Assembly (NCBI GenBank): GCA_001786745.1
Contig: MFTF01000012.1
Location: 1 to 39,506 of the forward strand
Length of the DNA: 39,506 nt
Source of the DNA: Candidatus Nomurabacteria bacterium RIFCSPHIGHO2_01_FULL_36_23
GTDB taxonomy: Bacteria; Patescibacteriota; Minisyncoccia; Phycocordibacterales; UBA9973
Direction: 5' to 3'
Positions within the stretch are counted from its first letter, which is position 1, and each line of letters begins with the position of its first letter. Shown here piece after piece: positions 2,905 to 33,099 of the stretch. A program made the translations under genes and the position numbers. Below the pieces are notes generated by a model. The model saw only the letters and a program-made list of their open reading frames with translations, did not search any database and was not told the DNA's origin.

Positions 2905-4335
2905 ATGCATAATGACCTGAATGAAAAATGCGCAGTTTTTGGAATTTTCGGAAATAAATCTTCTAAAACAGAAATAGCCAGAAAAACATATTTCGGATTA
3001 TTTGCTCTGCAACATCGCGGACAAGAACATTCGGGGATTGCCACCACTGACGGTAAAAAAATTCATCTTTATAAAGATGGCGGACTTGTAAGTCAAATTT
3101 ACACCGAAGAACTTCTTGCCAAGCTTCCGGGTTTTGCGGCTATCGGACACAATCGCTATTCTACATCTTCCGGACTTGAAGTTGAATATGCGCAACCCTT
3201 TCTTTACGATAATCTTTTTGCCTTGGGGCATAATGGTAACCTTCCAAGCACAAAAGTATTAATAGATTTTTTAAAAAGCAACAATGAAATAACAGAAAAT
3301 TATTCTGATTCGCGACTAATGACGGAAACTATCGGTGTCTATATGAAAAAGGGCGACTCATTACCAGATGCTGTCGAAAAAGCTTATCCGCTTTTTACCG
3401 GCGCATTTTCTTGCGTGGCTCTTGGGCTTGACACTATGGTTGCTTTTCGCGATCCTTGCGGTATTCGACCATTGGTCTTAGGAAAAAAAGAAAATCAAAT
3501 CATAGTATCTTCTGAAACTTGCGCGCTGGAAACCATCGGGGCAAAATTTATCCGCGAAATTAAACCAGGAGAAATGATTATTGTCACAAAAAATGGTAAA
3601 AAAAATAAAGTGCAAAGCAGGCAACTGGCAAAAGCAAAACCGCGGCTTGATATTTTTGAATTTGTTTATTTTGCGCGTTATGACAGTGTTCTCGCCGGCA
3701 AATCTGTATATGAAGTAAGAAAAAATTTAGGCAAGATGCTTGCTCGCCAGAATAAAAAGGAGAATAAAGTAAATGTTGATATGATTATACCAATTCCAGA
3801 AACGGCTATTTCAGCGGCTATCGGTTACGCCGAAGAATCCGATATACCGTTTGAAATGGGAATTTCTAAGAACCGCTACATCAATCGAACATTTATCGAA
3901 CCAACCCAAGATGTGCGTGAAGAAAAAGTAAAATTAAAATTAACTCCGCTTTCCAATGTTATCCGAGGTAAAAAAATCGCAGTGATGGACGATTCAATTG
4001 TTCGCGGAACAACAAGCAAGCAAATCGTAAAAATGCTTTTTGACGCCGGAGCGAAAGAAGTGCATTTTTTGGTAAGTTCAGCTCCGATACGATTTCCAGA
4101 TTTTTATGGTATTGACACTCCCAATCAAACTGAGCTTATTGCTTCAAAAAAAACAATAAAAGAAATTTGTAAATTTTTAGGAGCAACTTCTCTTTCTTAT
4201 TTATCAATTGATAGTATGGTAGCCGCTACGGGACTGCCCAAAAAACATTTGTCGCTTTCTTCTTTTGATGGAGTTTATCCAATTGACATACACGAACGAA
4301 AAAAAGAGATAAATTATGATGTTCCCAAAGACTAA
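2905..4335 (+). CDS. purF: Amidophosphoribosyltransferase
   Basis: Propeptide then catalytic Cys (EKCAVFG), LQHRGQE, GHNRYST, DDSIVRGTT. Confidence 0.97.
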   Translation: MHNDLNEKCAVFGIFGNKSSKTEIARKTYFGLFALQHRGQEHSGIATTDGKKIHLYKDGGLVSQIYTEELLAKLPGFAAIGHNRYSTSSGLEVEYAQPFLYDNLFALGHNGNLPSTKVLIDFLKSNNEITENYSDSRLMTETIGVYMKKGDSLPDAVEKAYPLFTGAFSCVALGLDTMVAFRDPCGIRPLVLGKKENQIIVSSETCALETIGAKFIREIKPGEMIIVTKNGKKNKVQSRQLAKAKPRLDIFEFVYFARYDSVLAGKSVYEVRKNLGKMLARQNKKENKVNVDMIIPIPETAISAAIGYAEESDIPFEMGISKNRYINRTFIEPTQDVREEKVKLKLTPLSNVIRGKKIAVMDDSIVRGTTSKQIVKMLFDAGAKEVHFLVSSAPIRFPDFYGIDTPNQTELIASKKTIKEICKFLGATSLSYLSIDSMVAATGLPKKHLSLSSFDGVYPIDIHERKKEINYDVPKD

Positions 4336-14322: not shown

Positions 14323-15558
14323 ATGCGAGAATTTTTAAAAACAAGATATGCTTCTGGCGTTATTTTGCTCACAGCTCTAGTTTTTGTTTTGGGTATTTAT
14401 GTAGGATACAATCAGCGTCCCGAGATAGAAAAAGTTTTTAATCTTTCTGGAAAAGAAACTACAGTTATTACCCAAACTGATTTTTCTCCTTTTTGGAAAG
14501 TCTGGAATACTATTAATGAAAAATATCCCGATGCGAATGAAATAACTGACCAAAATAAAGTTTATGGAGCAATTTCGGGCCTTGTGGATTCATTAAATGA
14601 TCCTTATAGTGTATTTTTTAGTCCGGATGAAACAAAATTATTTGAAGACGAAATAGCTGGTAGTTTCGGTGGGATTGGCATGGAAGTTGATATAAAAGAT
14701 AAAGTGCTCACAGTTGTTGCTCCGCTTAAAAATACTCCCGCTTATCGGGCTGGCATAAAACCGGGAGATAAAATTTTAAAAATTGATAAAATTACCACCC
14801 CTGATTTAAGGATTGAAGAAGCGCTTAAATTAATAAGAGGGGAGAAGGGTACAATTGTCACACTCACTATTCTCCATGATGGAGAAAAAGAATCGAGAGA
14901 AATAAAAATTATTAGAGATATTATAAATGTCCCAACTCTGGATACGGAATTGCGTCCTGATGGAATTTTCGTAATAAAATTTTATAGTTTTTCGGCCAGC
15001 TCCAACTCTTTATTCCGTGATGCCTTAAAGAAATTTGCTCTGGCAAAAACTGACAAATTTCTACTTGATTTAAGGGGTAATCCGGGAGGATATTTAGATA
15101 TAGCTGTTGATATATCAAGCTGGTTTTTACCGGGAGGAAAAATTATTGTAACTGAAGATTATGGAAATAATAAAGAACCGGAGATATTTAGAAGCAAAGA
15201 TTATAATTTATTCAATGATAAATTAAAATTTATAATTTTAATAGACGGCGGGTCCGCTTCGGCATCGGAAATTGTCGCTGGCGCAATGCAGGATTATAAA
15301 CGAGCAATTATAGTGGGTGGCAAAAGCTACGGCAAGGGTTCTGTGCAAGAAGTTGTAAATGTGACTCCAGATACTATTTTAAAAATTACAGTCGCTAAGT
15401 GGTTTACGCCTAATGGAAATTTGATTACTGAAAAAGGATTGACCCCGGATTACATAGTAGAAAATAAAAAACCTGCCCGCAATGCTTTGCCTAGCGATGC
15501 AGGCGGGGATCCACAAATGGATAAAGCCGTAGAATTATTAAATAATTGGCCTCGTTAA
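14323..15558 (+). CDS. ctpA: S41 carboxyl-terminal processing protease with PDZ domain
   Basis: LNDPYS, GGIG, DLRGNPGG, SASASEI, SYGKGSVQ. Confidence 0.95.
   Translation: MREFLKTRYASGVILLTALVFVLGIYVGYNQRPEIEKVFNLSGKETTVITQTDFSPFWKVWNTINEKYPDANEITDQNKVYGAISGLVDSLNDPYSVFFSPDETKLFEDEIAGSFGGIGMEVDIKDKVLTVVAPLKNTPAYRAGIKPGDKILKIDKITTPDLRIEEALKLIRGEKGTIVTLTILHDGEKESREIKIIRDIINVPTLDTELRPDGIFVIKFYSFSASSNSLFRDALKKFALAKTDKFLLDLRGNPGGYLDIAVDISSWFLPGGKIIVTEDYGNNKEPEIFRSKDYNLFNDKLKFIILIDGGSASASEIVAGAMQDYKRAIIVGGKSYGKGSVQEVVNVTPDTILKITVAKWFTPNGNLITEKGLTPDYIVENKKPARNALPSDAGGDPQMDKAVELLNNWPR
15472..15507 (+). repeat. 36-bp palindromic element in frame (PARNALPSDAGG)
   Basis: CCTGCCCGCAATGCTTTGCCTAGCGATGCAGGCGGG; copy 1 of 4. 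Confidence 0.92.
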
Positions 15559-16713: not shown

Positions 16714-16868
16714 GACAGCTTATAGTGTCCCAAACATATATTGTGCGACATATTCATATCAATAAAAATAACGGAAAAAACACTTCCCTGTTCTACTGCC
16801 TAATTTAAAAATTATTACCAACTTTATCTAAATCCCACGACATATTATTTTCTTTCATGACTTAATTT

Positions 16869-17045
16869 CTAATTAAGATTTAATTTAGAAAAAATAGTGC
16901 GAAAGAGACTTACAAACCAGTAAAAAATATCAGATATGGAAATATGGAAATAGTTTATTAAAAAAAAGAGAATCACTAAAAGAATTATTAATTTTAAAAA
17001 CCCTGCCTGCGCGGGTAGACCGCCTTTTTTGTTTTTTTTACTCAT
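16869..17045 (-). CDS. Small membrane protein of 58 aa (not in ORF track)
   Basis: MSKKNKKGGLPAQAGFLKLIILLVILFFLINYFHISISDIFYWFVSLFRTIFSKLNLN; TGGTAAAAT 6 nt before ATG. Confidence 0.75.
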   Translation of the reverse strand: MSKKNKKGGLPAQAGFLKLIILLVILFFLINYFHISISDIFYWFVSLFRTIFSKLNLN

Positions 17046-20844: not shown

Positions 20845-21942
20845 TTAATTTTTATTATATTTTGATACCTGAAACACAATGCCCATCGTCATTAGATATA
20901 CCATCAACGCAGTACCCCCATGACTCATGAAAACCAATGGTACTCCAGTCAACGGAAAAACTCCGGCAACAGAAGCAATGTGCATAAATGATTGCGCTGT
21001 AATCATTATAACAATCCCAGAAACCAAAAGTCCACTAAATAAATCGGGGGAATTATTGGCAATACGAAACCCGCGTAAAATAAAAAGAATAAAAAGAAAT
21101 ATTACCGCAAATGCTCCAACAAAACCCAGTTCTTCACCCAAAACAGCAAAAATAGAATCTCCTTGCGGTTCTGGAAGATAACTGAATTTTTGAATGCTTT
21201 GACCAAATCCTCTGCCGAAAATCCCGCCACTGCCCAACGCAATCAATGATTGTTGAATTTGGTAAGAAGACCCTCTGGGATCAGAGGACGGATCAATAAA
21301 AGTTTTTACTCGCTCTCGTAAATAGGGAGTAAAATAAATAAAAGACCCCAGAACTAATGTTATTCCCACACCAATGCCTAAAATATATTTCACAGGAACA
21401 CCTGAAATAAAAAGCATCAATATTCCAGTCACCGTAATTAAAATAAAACTCTTAGTATCTGGCTGTTTGAGTAAAACTAAAGCGATTATTGTCAGCATTA
21501 TAAAAAGCGGCAAAATCCTAAATTTAAAATCCTTGACTCTGTTTTTAGCCCAAGATAACCAGGCCGCAAAATAAATCACGAATCCAAATTTTAAAAACTC
21601 CACTGGCTGAAAAGAAAAACCTCCAAATTGTATCCATCTTTCTGCTCCGCCATGGCTCCATCCCAAAGAAGGAATAAAAACTGAAGTCGTGAGGAGTATT
21701 GAGCCCAAAAAAATTAAAAAGGAGTATTTGCGCCAAAATTTGTAATTTATTTTTAAGCAAAAATACATACCAACTAATCCCAAACCAAGACCTAGAATTA
21801 ATTGATTAAAAAGAACTGAATAAAAAATTTTTCCATTCTTAACCAAAATTCCCAAGGATGCGGAAATAAACATGCTAACGCCAATGACAACCAGCAGAAA
21901 TACAATTATTAGAAAAAATCTGTCTATTTTTTTTTCTCGCAT
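20845..21942 (-). CDS. ftsW: SEDS glycosyltransferase FtsW
   Basis: RWI, QPVEFLK, QPD, YLPEPQGDSIFA, SHGGT; located between mraY and murG; start reassigned to MREKK. Confidence 0.92.
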   Translation of the reverse strand: MREKKIDRFFLIIVFLLVVIGVSMFISASLGILVKNGKIFYSVLFNQLILGLGLGLVGMYFCLKINYKFWRKYSFLIFLGSILLTTSVFIPSLGWSHGGAERWIQFGGFSFQPVEFLKFGFVIYFAAWLSWAKNRVKDFKFRILPLFIMLTIIALVLLKQPDTKSFILITVTGILMLFISGVPVKYILGIGVGITLVLGSFIYFTPYLRERVKTFIDPSSDPRGSSYQIQQSLIALGSGGIFGRGFGQSIQKFSYLPEPQGDSIFAVLGEELGFVGAFAVIFLFILFILRGFRIANNSPDLFSGLLVSGIVIMITAQSFMHIASVAGVFPLTGVPLVFMSHGGTALMVYLMTMGIVFQVSKYNKN

Positions 21943-30060: not shown

Positions 30061-30405
30061 TTAATAAGCGCACTGCGCATCGATTTTTGCCGCAAGAATA
30101 AAATCGTTTTCGGAGAGACCGCCGATGGCGTGCGTGGAAAGTTTTAGCAAAACTTTGTTGTAGTGTATGTGAATATCCGGATGATGACCTTCTCTTTCTG
30201 CAATCTCTGCCACATTATTTACAAAATTAATCGCTCCGATAAAATCTTTGAACTTATATTCTTTGGAGATTTGTTTAACATCTTCGCTCAAAGTCCACTC
30301 GGAAACCTGTGCTATGTATTCCATGGCACTCGCACGGTCAAGTAGCTTGATTCCCCTCCCTTCGCAAGCAACACACATTTTCTTAAGTAAATTGTTTTTA
30401 CTCAT
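30061..30405 (-). CDS. phhB: Pterin-4a-carbinolamine dehydratase
   Basis: AEREGHHPDI, STHAIGGLSENDFILAAKID. Confidence 0.93.
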   Translation of the reverse strand: MSKNNLLKKMCVACEGRGIKLLDRASAMEYIAQVSEWTLSEDVKQISKEYKFKDFIGAINFVNNVAEIAEREGHHPDIHIHYNKVLLKLSTHAIGGLSENDFILAAKIDAQCAY

Positions 30406-30494
30406 TTTTATATTTTAACATTAATTTTAATTAAACCCAATTATTTACTAATGTAAGAAAATTTAATTAAAAAGTTTTCCACACCCCTATTATC

Positions 30495-30532
30495 TACTTT
30501 ACTTGACTAAAGTACTTTAGTTTGCTAAAGTA
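30495..30532 (+). promoter_or_regulatory. Two overlapping 20-bp palindromic operators covering a sigma70 promoter
   Basis: TACTTTACTTGACTAAAGTA (30495-30514) and TACTTTAGTTTGCTAAAGTA (30513-30532); TTGACT-N17-TAAAGT lies inside them. Confidence 0.85.
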
Positions 30533-30537
30533 GCAGT

Positions 30538-30933
30538 ATGAGTAAAGGAATGAATAAAAATACATCAATTAGAGTTGTTAAACTGATTGAAGGAATAGGC
30601 CCAAAAATCGACTGGAATACAAAGACAAATAAACAACTCGTGGACGCTGTGTTAGCTATTAAAAATGCTGATGAAGCAAAGCGCTTCTTGCGTGACCTGA
30701 TGACTGAAAGTGAGATTGAAGAATTCGCCAATCGTCTTGAGACTGCTCGCCTACTCGTGGGGGATGTACAATATAATACCATTATTCAAAATACTGGCCT
30801 TTCTTCCACAACTATCGCCCGAATATCAAAATGGCTTAAGGGCTCGCTCGGTGGCTATCGTCTTATCCTCGCTCGTCTTTCGAACCATCATCACAACCGT
30901 CCTAAACTTGGGAAAGGGTTGTCTTTGAGTTGA
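30538..30933 (+). CDS. TrpR-like YerC/YecD (HisR-type) repressor with His-triplet tail
   Basis: FLRDLMTESEIEEFANRL..A.LL...Y..I...TGLSSTTIARIS..L....GGY; tail NHHHNRP. Confidence 0.9.
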   Translation: MSKGMNKNTSIRVVKLIEGIGPKIDWNTKTNKQLVDAVLAIKNADEAKRFLRDLMTESEIEEFANRLETARLLVGDVQYNTIIQNTGLSSTTIARISKWLKGSLGGYRLILARLSNHHHNRPKLGKGLSLS

Positions 30934-30962
30934 TATTTATTTTATAATTATTTTTCGAAACC

Positions 30963-31004
30963 AACCCCTTCTCAAGTTTGAGAAGGGGTTTAAATTTGTT
31001 CTTT
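30963..31004 (+). terminator. Attenuator-type terminator between repressor and hisI
   Basis: Perfect 12-bp stem AACCCCTTCTCA/TGAGAAGGGGTT followed by an interrupted T-rich tract. Confidence 0.75.
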
Positions 31005-31021
31005 GAAAGGAAGGAAAACCA

Positions 31022-31399
31022 ATGATCGTCAAAGTAAATTGCATTCAACCTGACTTTACAAAACAGGGCGGGTTGATACCAGTGATCATCCAAAAACACA
31101 ACCAAGAGCAGAGAGGCGAAGTTTTGATGCTTGCCTATTCTAATAGTGAGGCCTATAATCTGACCAAAAAAACTGGATTAGTTCACTTCTGGTCACGTTC
31201 CAGAAAAAAACTCTGGAAGAAAGGAGAAACGTCTGGCAATCTATTGGTAGTAAGACAGATTTGGATGGATTGTGATCAAGACACTCTACTCTACGTAGTT
31301 ACTCCAAGGGGAACAGTATGTCATTTAGAAAAAAGTAGCTGTTTTTCCCAAGTTACTTATGTGGCGGGGGAAGAAATCGGGACAGTCTATACCACCTAA
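31022..31399 (+). CDS. hisI: Phosphoribosyl-AMP cyclohydrolase
   Basis: GLIPVIIQ, VLMLAY, FWSRSR..LWKKGETSG, DCDQD, CH....CF; purine-rich RBS. Confidence 0.93.
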   Translation: MIVKVNCIQPDFTKQGGLIPVIIQKHNQEQRGEVLMLAYSNSEAYNLTKKTGLVHFWSRSRKKLWKKGETSGNLLVVRQIWMDCDQDTLLYVVTPRGTVCHLEKSSCFSQVTYVAGEEIGTVYTT

Positions 31400-31567
31400 A
31401 CTGGAATGAGAATTGCAGACCCGTATGAGCAATCATGCGGGTGGAAGCAGATATCGGCAACAGAGAGGGTTGAAGTGAGATCAATAAGTATGGCAACCCA
31501 TGACCGTTTTATGGTGTGGTCTCAGCACCCCACCAGATAGAGGTAGTGAAAAGTTGCTCGGAGTAAC

Positions 31568-31603
31568 AAGGGGTAGAATTGTCTGAACAACAATCTGCCC
31601 CTT
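31568..31603. terminator. Hairpin/probable terminator between convergent hisI and rib units
   Basis: AAGGGGTAGA...TCTGCCCCTT stem. Confidence 0.55.
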
Positions 31604-31610
31604 CAATATT

Positions 31611-31645
31611 TCTATTCTATAATTCTATAGAATATTAGAATACTA
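31611..31645. repeat. 35-bp AT-rich hairpin repeat, copy 2
   Basis: Inverted match to 1934-1968 at 31/35. Confidence 0.7.
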
Positions 31646-31647
31646 TT

Positions 31648-31724
31648 TTAAGTATGCGCGTCGATTTTGGCCGCAAGAATGAAATCATTTACGGCACGCA
31701 TCTTTTCCTCAATAAATTACTCAT
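31648..31724 (-). pseudogene. Hollowed pterin-carbinolamine dehydratase remnant
   Basis: MSNLLRKRCVP fused out of frame to NDFILAAKIDAHT*; both ends match 30061-30405. Confidence 0.88.
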
Positions 31725-31731
31725 TAATTTT

Positions 31732-32178
31732 TTATTTAATTAAACCAAGTTCAAGCGCGGCTAAAGTCGCCTGGCCTCCGACATGAATTCTCTCTTTGGC
31801 TTGTTTTAAATTATTAACGGTCAGAATCCCAAAACCGACAGGGATATTATCTTCAATCATAACTTTTAAAACTCCCCCTTGCGCCATCTTACAGATATAA
31901 TCAAAATGCGGAGTATCTCCGCGAATAATGCATCCAAGCGCGACCAAAAAGTCATATTTTTTACTGAGCGCCATTTTGTGCAGAGCGAAAGGAATCTCAA
32001 ATGCCCCAGAGACATGGATAATTCTGATATTCTTTATCTTTACTTTACATTTTTTAAGATCAACCAGAGCATCGCTTAAAAGCTTTTCCGTGATTTCACC
32101 ATTCCACCGAGCCACGACAATGCCAGCTTTTAATTTGCTTCCGTCAAAATATTTTTTATTTTTATTTTTTGTTTGCAT
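31732..32178 (-). CDS. ribH: Lumazine synthase (start uncertain)
   Basis: VVARWN, VSGAFEIP, LGCIIRGDTPHFDY, PVGFGILT. Confidence 0.96.
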   Translation of the reverse strand: MQTKNKNKKYFDGSKLKAGIVVARWNGEITEKLLSDALVDLKKCKVKIKNIRIIHVSGAFEIPFALHKMALSKKYDFLVALGCIIRGDTPHFDYICKMAQGGVLKVMIEDNIPVGFGILTVNNLKQAKERIHVGGQATLAALELGLIK

Positions 32179-32776
32179 ATGCATATTTAGCAAGTATGTC
32201 AAATTCTAAATTTACCATATCTCCTTTTTTTTTATATTTTAAATTCGTATGTTTCAGAGTGTACGGAATAATTTTCACAATAAAAGAATTATGTAAAACT
32301 TTAACGACTGTCAGACTAATCCCCTCTACCGCAACCGACCCTTTGTAAATTAAAAATTTCTTTAAATTTTTGGCCGGCCCGCCTGCAACGCTATGCGTAG
32401 CATTGCGGGCAGGTATTTTTATTTCAAACACTTGCGAATTTTCTTCCTTTTTTATACTAATAATTTTGCCTTTTCCGTCAATATGTCCAAGCACCATGTG
32501 ACCATTTAGTCTATCGTCGAAACGTATTGAACGTTCAATATTTACTGTATCATCTTTTTTCAAAAAATTTAAATTGGAAAGTTTGAGAGTTTCCGGCATA
32601 TATTCAAAAAAGATATTTTTACCTGTTTTATTTACCGTAGAACAAATACCGTTGATACTTATGCTTTCTCCTAATTTTATTTTTCCTAAATTATTTAAAA
32701 TTGTTAAAGAAATACCGCTTTTATGAGATGTTATGTTTTTTACTTTTGCAGTTTTAGAAATTATGCCTGTGAACAT
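32162..32776 (-). CDS. ribE: Riboflavin synthase (alpha chain)
   Basis: MFTGII, INGICSTV, GHMVLGHIDG, KGSVAVEGISLTV, VNLEFDILAKY. Confidence 0.96.
   Translation of the reverse strand: MFTGIISKTAKVKNITSHKSGISLTILNNLGKIKLGESISINGICSTVNKTGKNIFFEYMPETLKLSNLNFLKKDDTVNIERSIRFDDRLNGHMVLGHIDGKGKIISIKKEENSQVFEIKIPARNATHSVAGGPAKNLKKFLIYKGSVAVEGISLTVVKVLHNSFIVKIIPYTLKHTNLKYKKKGDMVNLEFDILAKYAYANKK
32378..32413 (-). repeat. 36-bp palindromic element in frame (PARNATHSVAGG)
   Basis: CCTGCCCGCAATGCTACGCATAGCGTTGCAGGCGGG; copy 3 of 4. Confidence 0.92.
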
Positions 32777-33099
32777 TTTTTTATATCTTTTTTAATCTGC
32801 GCGATAAGTTTTTTCTCTGTTTTAAATTTTTTGAATTTTCTCAAAAATTCTTTTATTTCAAGAATTACTTTTTTCCTATATGCATCTCCGTTATATCTTA
32901 TTAGGTGAGCTTCGATCTTTCTATTGGGACCAACGACAATCCCCGCCCGATATTTTATATCATCCAAAACTGCTATTCCGACATAAATTCCGTCCGGAGG
33001 AAATTCTTTCGTTTCTGCATCTAAGTTTACAGTGGGAAATCCTAATTTTTTACCATATCCATCGCCCTTTATAACCTTACCGGAAATTATGTAATGCAT
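32761..33099 (-). CDS. Stand-alone riboflavin kinase domain
   Basis: G.VIKGDGYGKKLGFPTVNL, IEAHL, QIKKDI; lacks the FAD synthetase domain. Confidence 0.9.
   Translation of the reverse strand: MHYIISGKVIKGDGYGKKLGFPTVNLDAETKEFPPDGIYVGIAVLDDIKYRAGIVVGPNRKIEAHLIRYNGDAYRKKVILEIKEFLRKFKKFKTEKKLIAQIKKDIKKCSQA

Follow-up and report, generated by a model that had tools for sequence, protein, structure and literature searches.

The stretch of DNA considered here (the window) comprises 39,506 nt of Candidatus Nomurabacteria bacterium RIFCSPHIGHO2_01_FULL_36_23 (assembly GCA_001786745.1, contig MFTF01000012.1, positions 1-39,506), whose genome assembly (94% complete) totals 556 kb over 25 contigs. Its forward strand carries a pair of adjacent genes, the first coding for a YerC/YecD-type repressor of the TrpR family (hereafter HisR) and the second for a HisI-like protein, with a set of alternative RNA hairpins spread over the 3' end of the former and the spacer between the two (Table 1). 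Our observations argue that these hairpins probably constitute a histidine-specific transcription attenuator, whose leader peptide would be the C-terminal tail of the repressor itself. An earlier interpretation made from the letters of the DNA and their translations (the sequence-only reading) had proposed such a double role for the repressor gene, and we set out below where the comparative evidence sustains that proposal, and where it amends it.

The open reading frame (ORF) of hisR belongs to the HisR/YerC-YecD branch of the TrpR family. A Pfam search recovers PF01371 over residues 32-114 at 2e-18, and the TIGR02531 model for YerC/YecD gives 63.3 bits against a cut-off of 42.2, whereas the TrpR equivalog model gives 25 against 67.25, which sets the protein apart from TrpR proper. 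The homologues of known structure in the PDB, viz., 3KOR, 3FRW, and 3G1C, cover residues 28-116 only; the last of these, matching at 1.9e-10, is the HisR of E. eligens (Ashniev et al., 2022; PMC9413887). The YerC-type family has been named HisR as a histidine-responsive repressor, with in vitro proof for the Ruminococcus gnavus HisR only, and its operator consensus is the 20-bp palindrome cacTTTA-N6-TAAAgtg (Ashniev et al., 2022). Two predicted operator boxes of this kind, overlooked in the sequence-only reading, stand in tandem before hisR (30495-30532) and span a promoter-like site (30503-30531) returned by a promoter scan. The exact form ACTTTA-N6-TAAAGT occurs at 30496-30513 and 30514-30531, against 0.39 occurrences expected in the window, and the 556-kb genome has no other exact match. 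Of the 80 hisR loci that we analysed out of 506 candidates, 78 have a box, with one mismatch or none, within the 260 nt preceding hisR. From family membership and the operator sequence we infer that histidine is the co-repressor of this HisR. Judged by exact boxes, the HisR regulon of this genome consists of hisR's own operon only. As a separate observation, the protein begins with an extension (residues 1-25, MSKGMNKNT..., encoded by 30538-30612) that is missing from shorter hisR forms; N6 and N8 are invariant in 28 aligned homologues, and the predicted local distance difference test score (pLDDT) of the AlphaFold2 model is below 50 at residues 4-19.

At its other end the protein carries all of its histidines in one run. 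The exact count of three adjacent codons and their position, as given by the sequence-only reading, are confirmed by the translation, and its placement of the run beyond the helix-turn-helix core is borne out too, for the run lies past both the PF01371 match and the PDB homologues. The AlphaFold2 model has pLDDT below 50 at residues 118-131, and the tail is predicted to be disordered and to stand outside the protein fold. Among the best 120 HisR homologues (about 125-145 aa; where a source is named, it is Paceibacteria or Nomurabacteria), the core is devoid of histidine and the tail has one to four in every case, and all of them end in a tail resembling H(1-4)-x3-K-L-G/R-K-G-L-S-L-S. These homologues contain 66 distinct tails. 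Counted back from the end of the K-G-L codons, position -12 is His in 47 of the tails, -11 in 58, and -10 in 49; at least two histidines stand at a fixed distance from the RNA strand that we term strand 2 in 60 of the 66. A search for His-run tails among homologues had been suggested as a check of the proposal, and the tail histidines prove to be present at a fixed position in 120 of 120.

The core of the sequence-only reading was a complementarity between 30904-30921, inside hisR, and 30962-30979, the 5' arm and loop of a terminator hairpin in front of hisI. This complementarity is indeed 17/18, with 16 Watson-Crick pairs, one G-U pair, and one A.C mismatch, though the distance from the His codons to the complementary stretch is 9 nt and not 10. 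The terminator hairpin (30963-30990) likewise has the 12 bp ascribed to it, six of them G-C, with a loop of 4 nt, and it is the sole terminator-like hairpin within 30300-31700. Mutually exclusive hairpins are present as proposed, but the switch has four strands rather than three, strand 1 (30893-30904) and the inner stem having escaped the earlier account. The segment 30895-30982 folds as a single long hairpin of -29.9 kcal/mol (z = -5.63; equalled by 0 of 200 dinucleotide shuffles), in which 30903-30929 pairs with 30954-30980 in a manner incompatible with the terminator. When 18 nt more of 5' sequence and strand 4 are included, the unconstrained minimum free energy (MFE) structure, at -36.7 kcal/mol, is made up of helix 1:2 (30893-30904 with 30909-30922), a spacer hairpin, and the terminator 3:4. 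A 31-nt mask simulating the ribosome around the third His codon yields antiterminator 2:3, whereas a mask at the stop codon yields 3:4. Because the masks thus shift the fold between antiterminator and terminator, the window behaves like a four-strand attenuator.

Table 1. Features of the hisR-hisI locus, in coordinates of the window
Feature	Position	Strand	Remarks
HisR operator box 1 (predicted)	30495-30514	+	20-bp palindrome fitting cacTTTA-N6-TAAAgtg; overlaps the -35-like TTGACT at 30503-30508
HisR operator box 2 (predicted)	30513-30532	+	overlaps the -10-like TAAAGT at 30526-30531
hisR (YerC/YecD-type TrpR-family repressor)	30538-30933	+	131 aa; residues 117-131 form the putative fused leader-peptide tail
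Regulatory His codons CAT CAT CAC (putative)	30886-30894	+	sole His codons of the 131-aa ORF; residues 117-119, in frame
Strand 1	30893-30904	+	pairs with strand 2 to give helix 1:2 (anti-antiterminator/pause)
Strand 2 and 5' half of inner stem	30903-30929	+	codons for K L G K G L S L; 5' side of the antiterminator
Inner stem	30924-30929 with 30954-30959	+	part of the antiterminator hairpin
Strand 3 and 3' half of inner stem	30954-30980	+	strand 3 is the 5' arm and loop of the terminator; 3' side of the antiterminator
Terminator hairpin 3:4 and interrupted T-run TTTAAATTTG	30963-30997	+	30963-30974 with 30979-30990
GTTCTTT motif, then long Shine-Dalgarno GAAAGGAAGG for hisI	30998-31014	+	
hisI-like gene	31022-31399	+	PR-AMP (phosphoribosyl-AMP) cyclohydrolase domain only, 125 aa; PF01502 at 4e-32; putative regulated gene

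No Rfam match was obtained in the window at gathering thresholds, and T-boxes were found neither at the gathering level nor, within 30400-31700, up to E = 10. The Rfam His_leader model (RF00514) gives 24.5 bits against a gathering score of 49, i.e., below membership; neither this sub-threshold match nor the other permissive ones, which are to generic long-hairpin miRNA precursors, were taken as membership. We also rejected generic genome-wide reuse of the terminator, since of the nine occurrences of AACCCCTTC the seven outside the hairpin are coding or belong to a different repeated element.

Comparative genomics places this alternative structure on firmer ground. In 10 of 11 strong hisR loci from same-genus and same-order genomes, the tail is accompanied by the TTTCGAAA box and by a terminator whose 5' arm and loop are complementary to the tail. 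From 52 fused elements we prepared a MAFFT alignment blind to structure (A2), which is the basis of all column-wise covariation counts given here, and from it a covariance model (R1); the covariation statistics ignore phylogeny. R1 matches the hisR 3' end in 72 of the 80 loci, 51 of them seeds and 21 non-seeds. Four of the eight loci devoid of a match (L043, L055, L093, and L096) have a hisR that ends right after the domain, with neither tail nor switch; two others (L075 and L102) are cut or masked, and the remaining two (L058 and L099) have variant sequences. Scanning the genomes of 61 relatives with R1, we found matches confined to 10 genomes with a tailed hisR, always at the end of the gene, plus one second copy. 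In A2, 93.1% of the cells of the antiterminator and inner stem are paired, with compensatory changes in 15 of 22 pairs; none of 500 column shuffles reaches any of these measures, and sliding the partner by one to three columns leaves 32-62% paired. For the terminator, 96.5% of the cells are paired and compensatory changes are seen in 9 of 14 pairs, and for helix 1:2 the figures are 82.5%, with both-side changes in 4 of 9 pairs. The spacer between strands 2 and 3 is variable in both length and sequence.

Two further measures bear on whether it is the RNA or the peptide that is being conserved. First, within helix 1:2 synonymous choices go together: Asn AAC accompanies Gly GGG in 27 cases and AAT accompanies GGA in 17, with mixed combinations in 3 and 0 (Fisher 4e-10, phylogeny ignored). 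Second, among 60 distinct pairs of tail and terminator arm, the cognate duplexes have a mean energy of -17.76 kcal/mol as against -14.18 kcal/mol for non-cognate ones, and 0 of 10,000 permutations reach the cognate mean. The same switch design is seen in other Patescibacteria families (in a phylum-wide sample of 401 genomes, hisR is present in 65 at E up to 1e-10), where 14 loci with quite different strand sequences give -16.07 as against -10.93 kcal/mol, again with 0 of 10,000 permutations. The tail-terminator covariation that had been proposed as a check is thus present, both as compensatory pairs in A2 and as cognate duplexes that outdo non-cognate ones. Because cognate pairing persists in other families with quite different strand sequences, the conservation of the tail peptide is probably in large part secondary to RNA pairing. 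As its cause we rejected a conserved protein motif, in view of the synonymous-site covariation and of the free-standing leaders described below. Covariation establishes the antiterminator/terminator alternative, the mechanism being inferred.

Evidence on the origin of the tail comes from second copies of the element that R1 detects away from hisR. In 8 of 10 of these, the same hairpins are preceded by an ORF that is 18-28 codons long, in frame, and carries HH at the corresponding place, and such copies typically lie 3' of the SLOG-family gene that follows hisR. By sequence, they appear to be ordinary His leader peptides. Two other loci (L131 and L136) have a tail-less hisR, and after it a distinct leader ORF, containing HHH or HH, with an attenuator of its own; in L136 no more than 10 nt separate the hisR stop from the start of this ORF. 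The window itself has no short dedicated leader ORF (about 14-30 codons) of the kind by which attenuators are recognized, the frame there being the 131-codon hisR. Because homologous switches with short HH leader peptides occur in the same lineages, the tail is best explained as a leader peptide whose once independent ORF would have become joined to hisR, and the fused and unfused versions of one element seem to coexist in related genomes.

With respect to what is regulated, the ORF downstream of the terminator is, as the sequence-only reading had named it, a hisI by its PF01502 match, its score with NF000768 being 124.4 bits against a cut-off of 126. All three hisI genes in a sample of 36 genomes of the genus stand behind a hisR attenuator, and in another genome of the same genus (G030) a tailed hisR with its attenuator precedes hisS-hisG-hisIE-hisD-hisC-hisB-hisH-hisAF. 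The suggested co-occurrence of His tails and downstream his genes holds for a subset including this complete his operon: of the 75 loci in which an ORF follows, five have hisI in first place, four hisG, and three hisS, but the first gene in most loci is not a recognisable his gene. The other first genes include a SLOG gene in nine and one unknown family in seven, as well as methyltransferases, phosphoribosyl pyrophosphate (PRPP) synthetase, alanine racemase, GNAT, HAD, and radical SAM proteins, and many unknown small proteins.

Several observations accompany these neighbourhoods. The commonest neighbour of hisR, other families included, is a SLOG cluster-4/LOG-like gene (PF18306 at 1.3e-33 in L007), seen in L007/L061, L034, L043, L055, L072, L075, L086, L093, L094, L109, L114, L115, and L132. 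Often a free-standing His leader and a phosphoribosyltransferase (PRTase)-like gene (PF00156, below threshold) come after it, and this set may represent an undescribed histidine/PRPP-linked module. Further, a motif GTTC[TA]TT occurs 7-55 nt 3' of the terminator in 29 of 57 loci, as against 38 of 905 background windows, and the GTTCTTT form is also present after the attenuators of free-standing leaders; its extended form GTTCTTTRAAA has just four occurrences in the genome of the window. Pairing between its UUCUUU and the Shine-Dalgarno AAAGGA is conceivable and would provide a second, translational layer.

Taken together, we put the probability that the element is a ribosome-mediated, histidine-specific attenuator with a leader fused to HisR at roughly three in four; the earlier proposal that the repressor ORF serves as the leader is supported by the tails, the covariation, the tail-less genes without a switch, and the free-standing leaders. 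On this account hisR and hisI would form a two-gene operon with two layers of histidine control. In the first, HisR with histidine as co-repressor would bind the two tandem boxes over its own promoter. In the second, the last 15 codons of hisR would act as the leader peptide of a classical transcription attenuator, with helices 1:2, 2:3, and 3:4 being mutually exclusive. Under scarcity of charged His-tRNA, the ribosome finishing hisR would stall at the three His codons with its footprint over strand 1; because the HisR core is free of His codons, histidine starvation would stall it solely at the tail. Strand 2 would then be free to pair with strand 3, the terminator would be blocked, and RNA polymerase would enter hisI, while the same stall would also withhold the complete repressor. 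With ample His-tRNA, the ribosome would pass strand 2 to the stop codon 12 nt further, melting or masking the G-C-rich core of 2:3 and the inner stem, such that 3:4 would form and transcription would stop.

The energetics of the switch across the family call for a qualification of this scheme. The mean energies over the loci are -7.0 kcal/mol for 1:2, -22.9 for 2:3, and -19.4 for 3:4, and the unconstrained MFE structures of the 52 loci split 27 to 25 between the two states. Folding with and without a ribosome footprint, which had been proposed as a check, separates the two states in the window but not cleanly across these loci. Similarly, the suggestion that a ribosome reaching the stop codon covers the antiterminator strand agrees with the formation of 3:4 under a mask at that position in the window, but only the 3' third of strand 2 is covered. 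As the equilibrium masks fail to separate the states across the family, the decision would have to be kinetic; the folding energetics fit a kinetic switch without being proof of one.

A number of observations weigh against histidine-specific attenuation as set out above. Under the stalled mask, 42 of the 52 loci adopt the terminator when strand 4 is present; with the ribosome at the stop codon, at least eight antiterminator pairs are still possible in 35 of 52 transcripts cut before strand 4. Helix 1:2 is weak, having on average 0.2 pairs in the MFE structures of transcripts so cut. As a 131-codon ORF holds every amino acid, starvation for any of them could delay the ribosome, and specificity would then rest on this weak helix. 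The His codons themselves number just one to four, with a single one in 6 of the 66 different tails. An interrupted T-run (TTTAAATTTG) follows the terminator stem in the window; most relatives have TTTTG there. On the side of the regulated genes, the first downstream gene is not a recognisable his gene in 63 of the 75 loci. Moreover, neither HisG nor HisD was found in the 94%-complete genome of the window, in which matches to His_biosynth are marginal only, and hisI is therefore an orphan standing alone under its elaborate putative control.

Some of these same observations would be accommodated if the terminator were merely coupled to translation, with no specificity for histidine, and the His residues were kept for a role at the protein level, such as binding a metal or a ligand. 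In the absence of a ribosome, 2:3 forms in 51 of the 52 transcripts cut before strand 4; together with the weakness of 1:2, this means that delay anywhere would favour read-through, and the preponderance of downstream genes other than his genes fits as well. We nevertheless consider this explanation unlikely. It offers no reason for a core that is free of histidine in all 120 homologues while the tail histidines always keep a fixed distance from strand 2, nor for the free-standing leaders of 18-28 codons, which carry HH but no protein domain. A role in the protein also sits poorly with a tail that is predicted to be disordered and lies outside the solved homologues, and whose peptide conservation is explained by RNA pairing, synonymous sites included.

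Still less probable, in our estimate, is that the hairpins are switched not by the ribosome but by a trans-acting factor or small ligand, be it HisR itself, another RNA-binding protein, or a riboswitch ligand. The placement of a regulator gene directly 5' of the attenuator, as with pyrR, would suit such a switch, and it could give the conserved GTTCTTT motif after the terminator the explanation that it otherwise lacks. However, the spacer between strands 2 and 3 is variable and there is no conserved unpaired pocket, conservation being limited to the paired strands and the codons; no Rfam family matches at threshold; and strand 2 and the His codons always lie in a translated frame, whether fused or free-standing. 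Finally, that the hairpin is a plain hisR terminator of incidental complementarity, with hisI transcribed from its own promoter in the spacer (TTGTCT-18-TATAAT, 30919-30948, listed by the promoter scan with 10 of 12 positions matched), is highly improbable and was rejected, given that such a transcript would hold strands 3 and 4 without strand 2 and hence always terminate, that the spacer is not conserved, that the scan gave seven sites against 2.7 expected in this A+T-rich region, and that tail-arm covariation rules out an incidental pairing.

To our knowledge, leader-peptide attenuation, a textbook mechanism, has always had a throw-away mini-peptide as its sensing ORF, and what would be new here is classical attenuation with the repressor gene itself in that role. 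Partial parallels exist in two other kinds of system. In pyr operons, the regulator gene pyrR lies directly 5' of an intercistronic attenuator, and PyrR acts by binding RNA; the gene order is alike, but the switch in the window would work through the ribosome rather than an RNA-binding protein. In the SecM/MifM/VemP type, the ribosome stalls late in a long ORF, and the resulting change in mRNA structure controls the next gene. Stalls of the SecM type are driven by an arrest peptide and act on translation, and the product of the ORF has no second function, whereas the stall in the window would come from tRNA shortage and act on termination, and the product is a repressor.

Closer to the present case are the systems already linked to histidine. 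The enterobacterial hisL attenuator (RF00514) likewise has tandem His codons in a translated frame, followed by mutually exclusive pause, antiterminator, and terminator helices before his genes (Ashniev et al., 2022). However, the hisL peptide is short, serves as leader only, and has more His codons than the three found within the C-terminal 15 residues of a 131-aa repressor, and its sequence is unrelated to the element in the window. Candidate His attenuators have also been described in the Bacillus cereus group, Peptostreptococcaceae, and Erysipelotrichales, with short leaders having three to five His codons running, a terminator, and an antiterminator (Ashniev et al., 2022). These Firmicutes candidates resemble the free-standing HH leaders of the relatives studied here; they are, however, reported where HisR and T-box control are both absent (Ashniev et al., 2022), unlike the attenuator in the window, which is fused to HisR. 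With the HisR (YerC) regulons the window shares the repressor family, the 20-bp operator, autoregulation of hisR, and a position upstream of his genes, but the published HisR proteins have less than 100 aa (Ashniev et al., 2022), and the one in the window is longer by the 15-residue His tail over the attenuator and by some 25 residues at the N-terminus. The text of that article makes no mention of Patescibacteria. In a literature search that took in this text, neither a leader peptide fused to a repressor nor attenuators in Patescibacteria or the Candidate Phyla Radiation (CPR) turned up.

Beyond the operon, the segment that follows hisI (31400-31625, +) is richer in G+C and poor in ORFs, folds at -74.2 kcal/mol (z = -4.67; 0 of 200 shuffles), and ends in a terminator-like hairpin; its minus strand gives z = -2.1. 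It has no Rfam match, no tRNA or tmRNA, and no DNA match in 60 relatives, and we regard it as a candidate small RNA. Elsewhere in the same genome, outside the window, a conserved element some 90 nt long, with two hairpins and the ending ...CTCGAAACCCCTTC, occurs four times just 5' of start codons (C5 about 14430-14520, C9 about 20870-20960, C15 about 3680-3780, and C16 about 16800-16900); it looks like a repeated cis-regulatory RNA or riboswitch candidate. On the minus strand, the operon is flanked upstream by a pterin-4a-carbinolamine dehydratase gene (30061-30405; PF01329) and downstream by ORFs (31732-33099) that, by their translations, we take to be lumazine synthase-like, riboflavin synthase-like, and riboflavin kinase-like. 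No link of these rib-like and PF01329 genes to the attenuator was seen.

The related genomes offer fused and unfused forms side by side and dozens of covarying examples, whereby both the fusion step and the mechanism become directly testable. We would also raise, as a tentative and rather doubtful extension, the possibility that the fusion is a deliberate two-sensor device, in which a single stall opens the attenuator and blocks completion of the repressor, coupling derepression and antitermination in a feed-forward manner, and that this device is widespread in Patescibacteria, governing a His-starvation regulon of largely uncharacterised genes (SLOG/LOG-like, PRTase-like, and unknown families). 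Such genes may constitute an undescribed histidine/PRPP-related salvage or scavenging pathway where histidine biosynthesis has been lost. If the attenuator reading is true, it would provide, as far as the literature search found, the first documented attenuator family in the CPR, would imply that transcription and translation are coupled in Patescibacteria, and would point to a response to histidine starvation in a group of unknown genes. A single gene would then read both free histidine, through its protein product, and charged tRNA-His, through its own translation.

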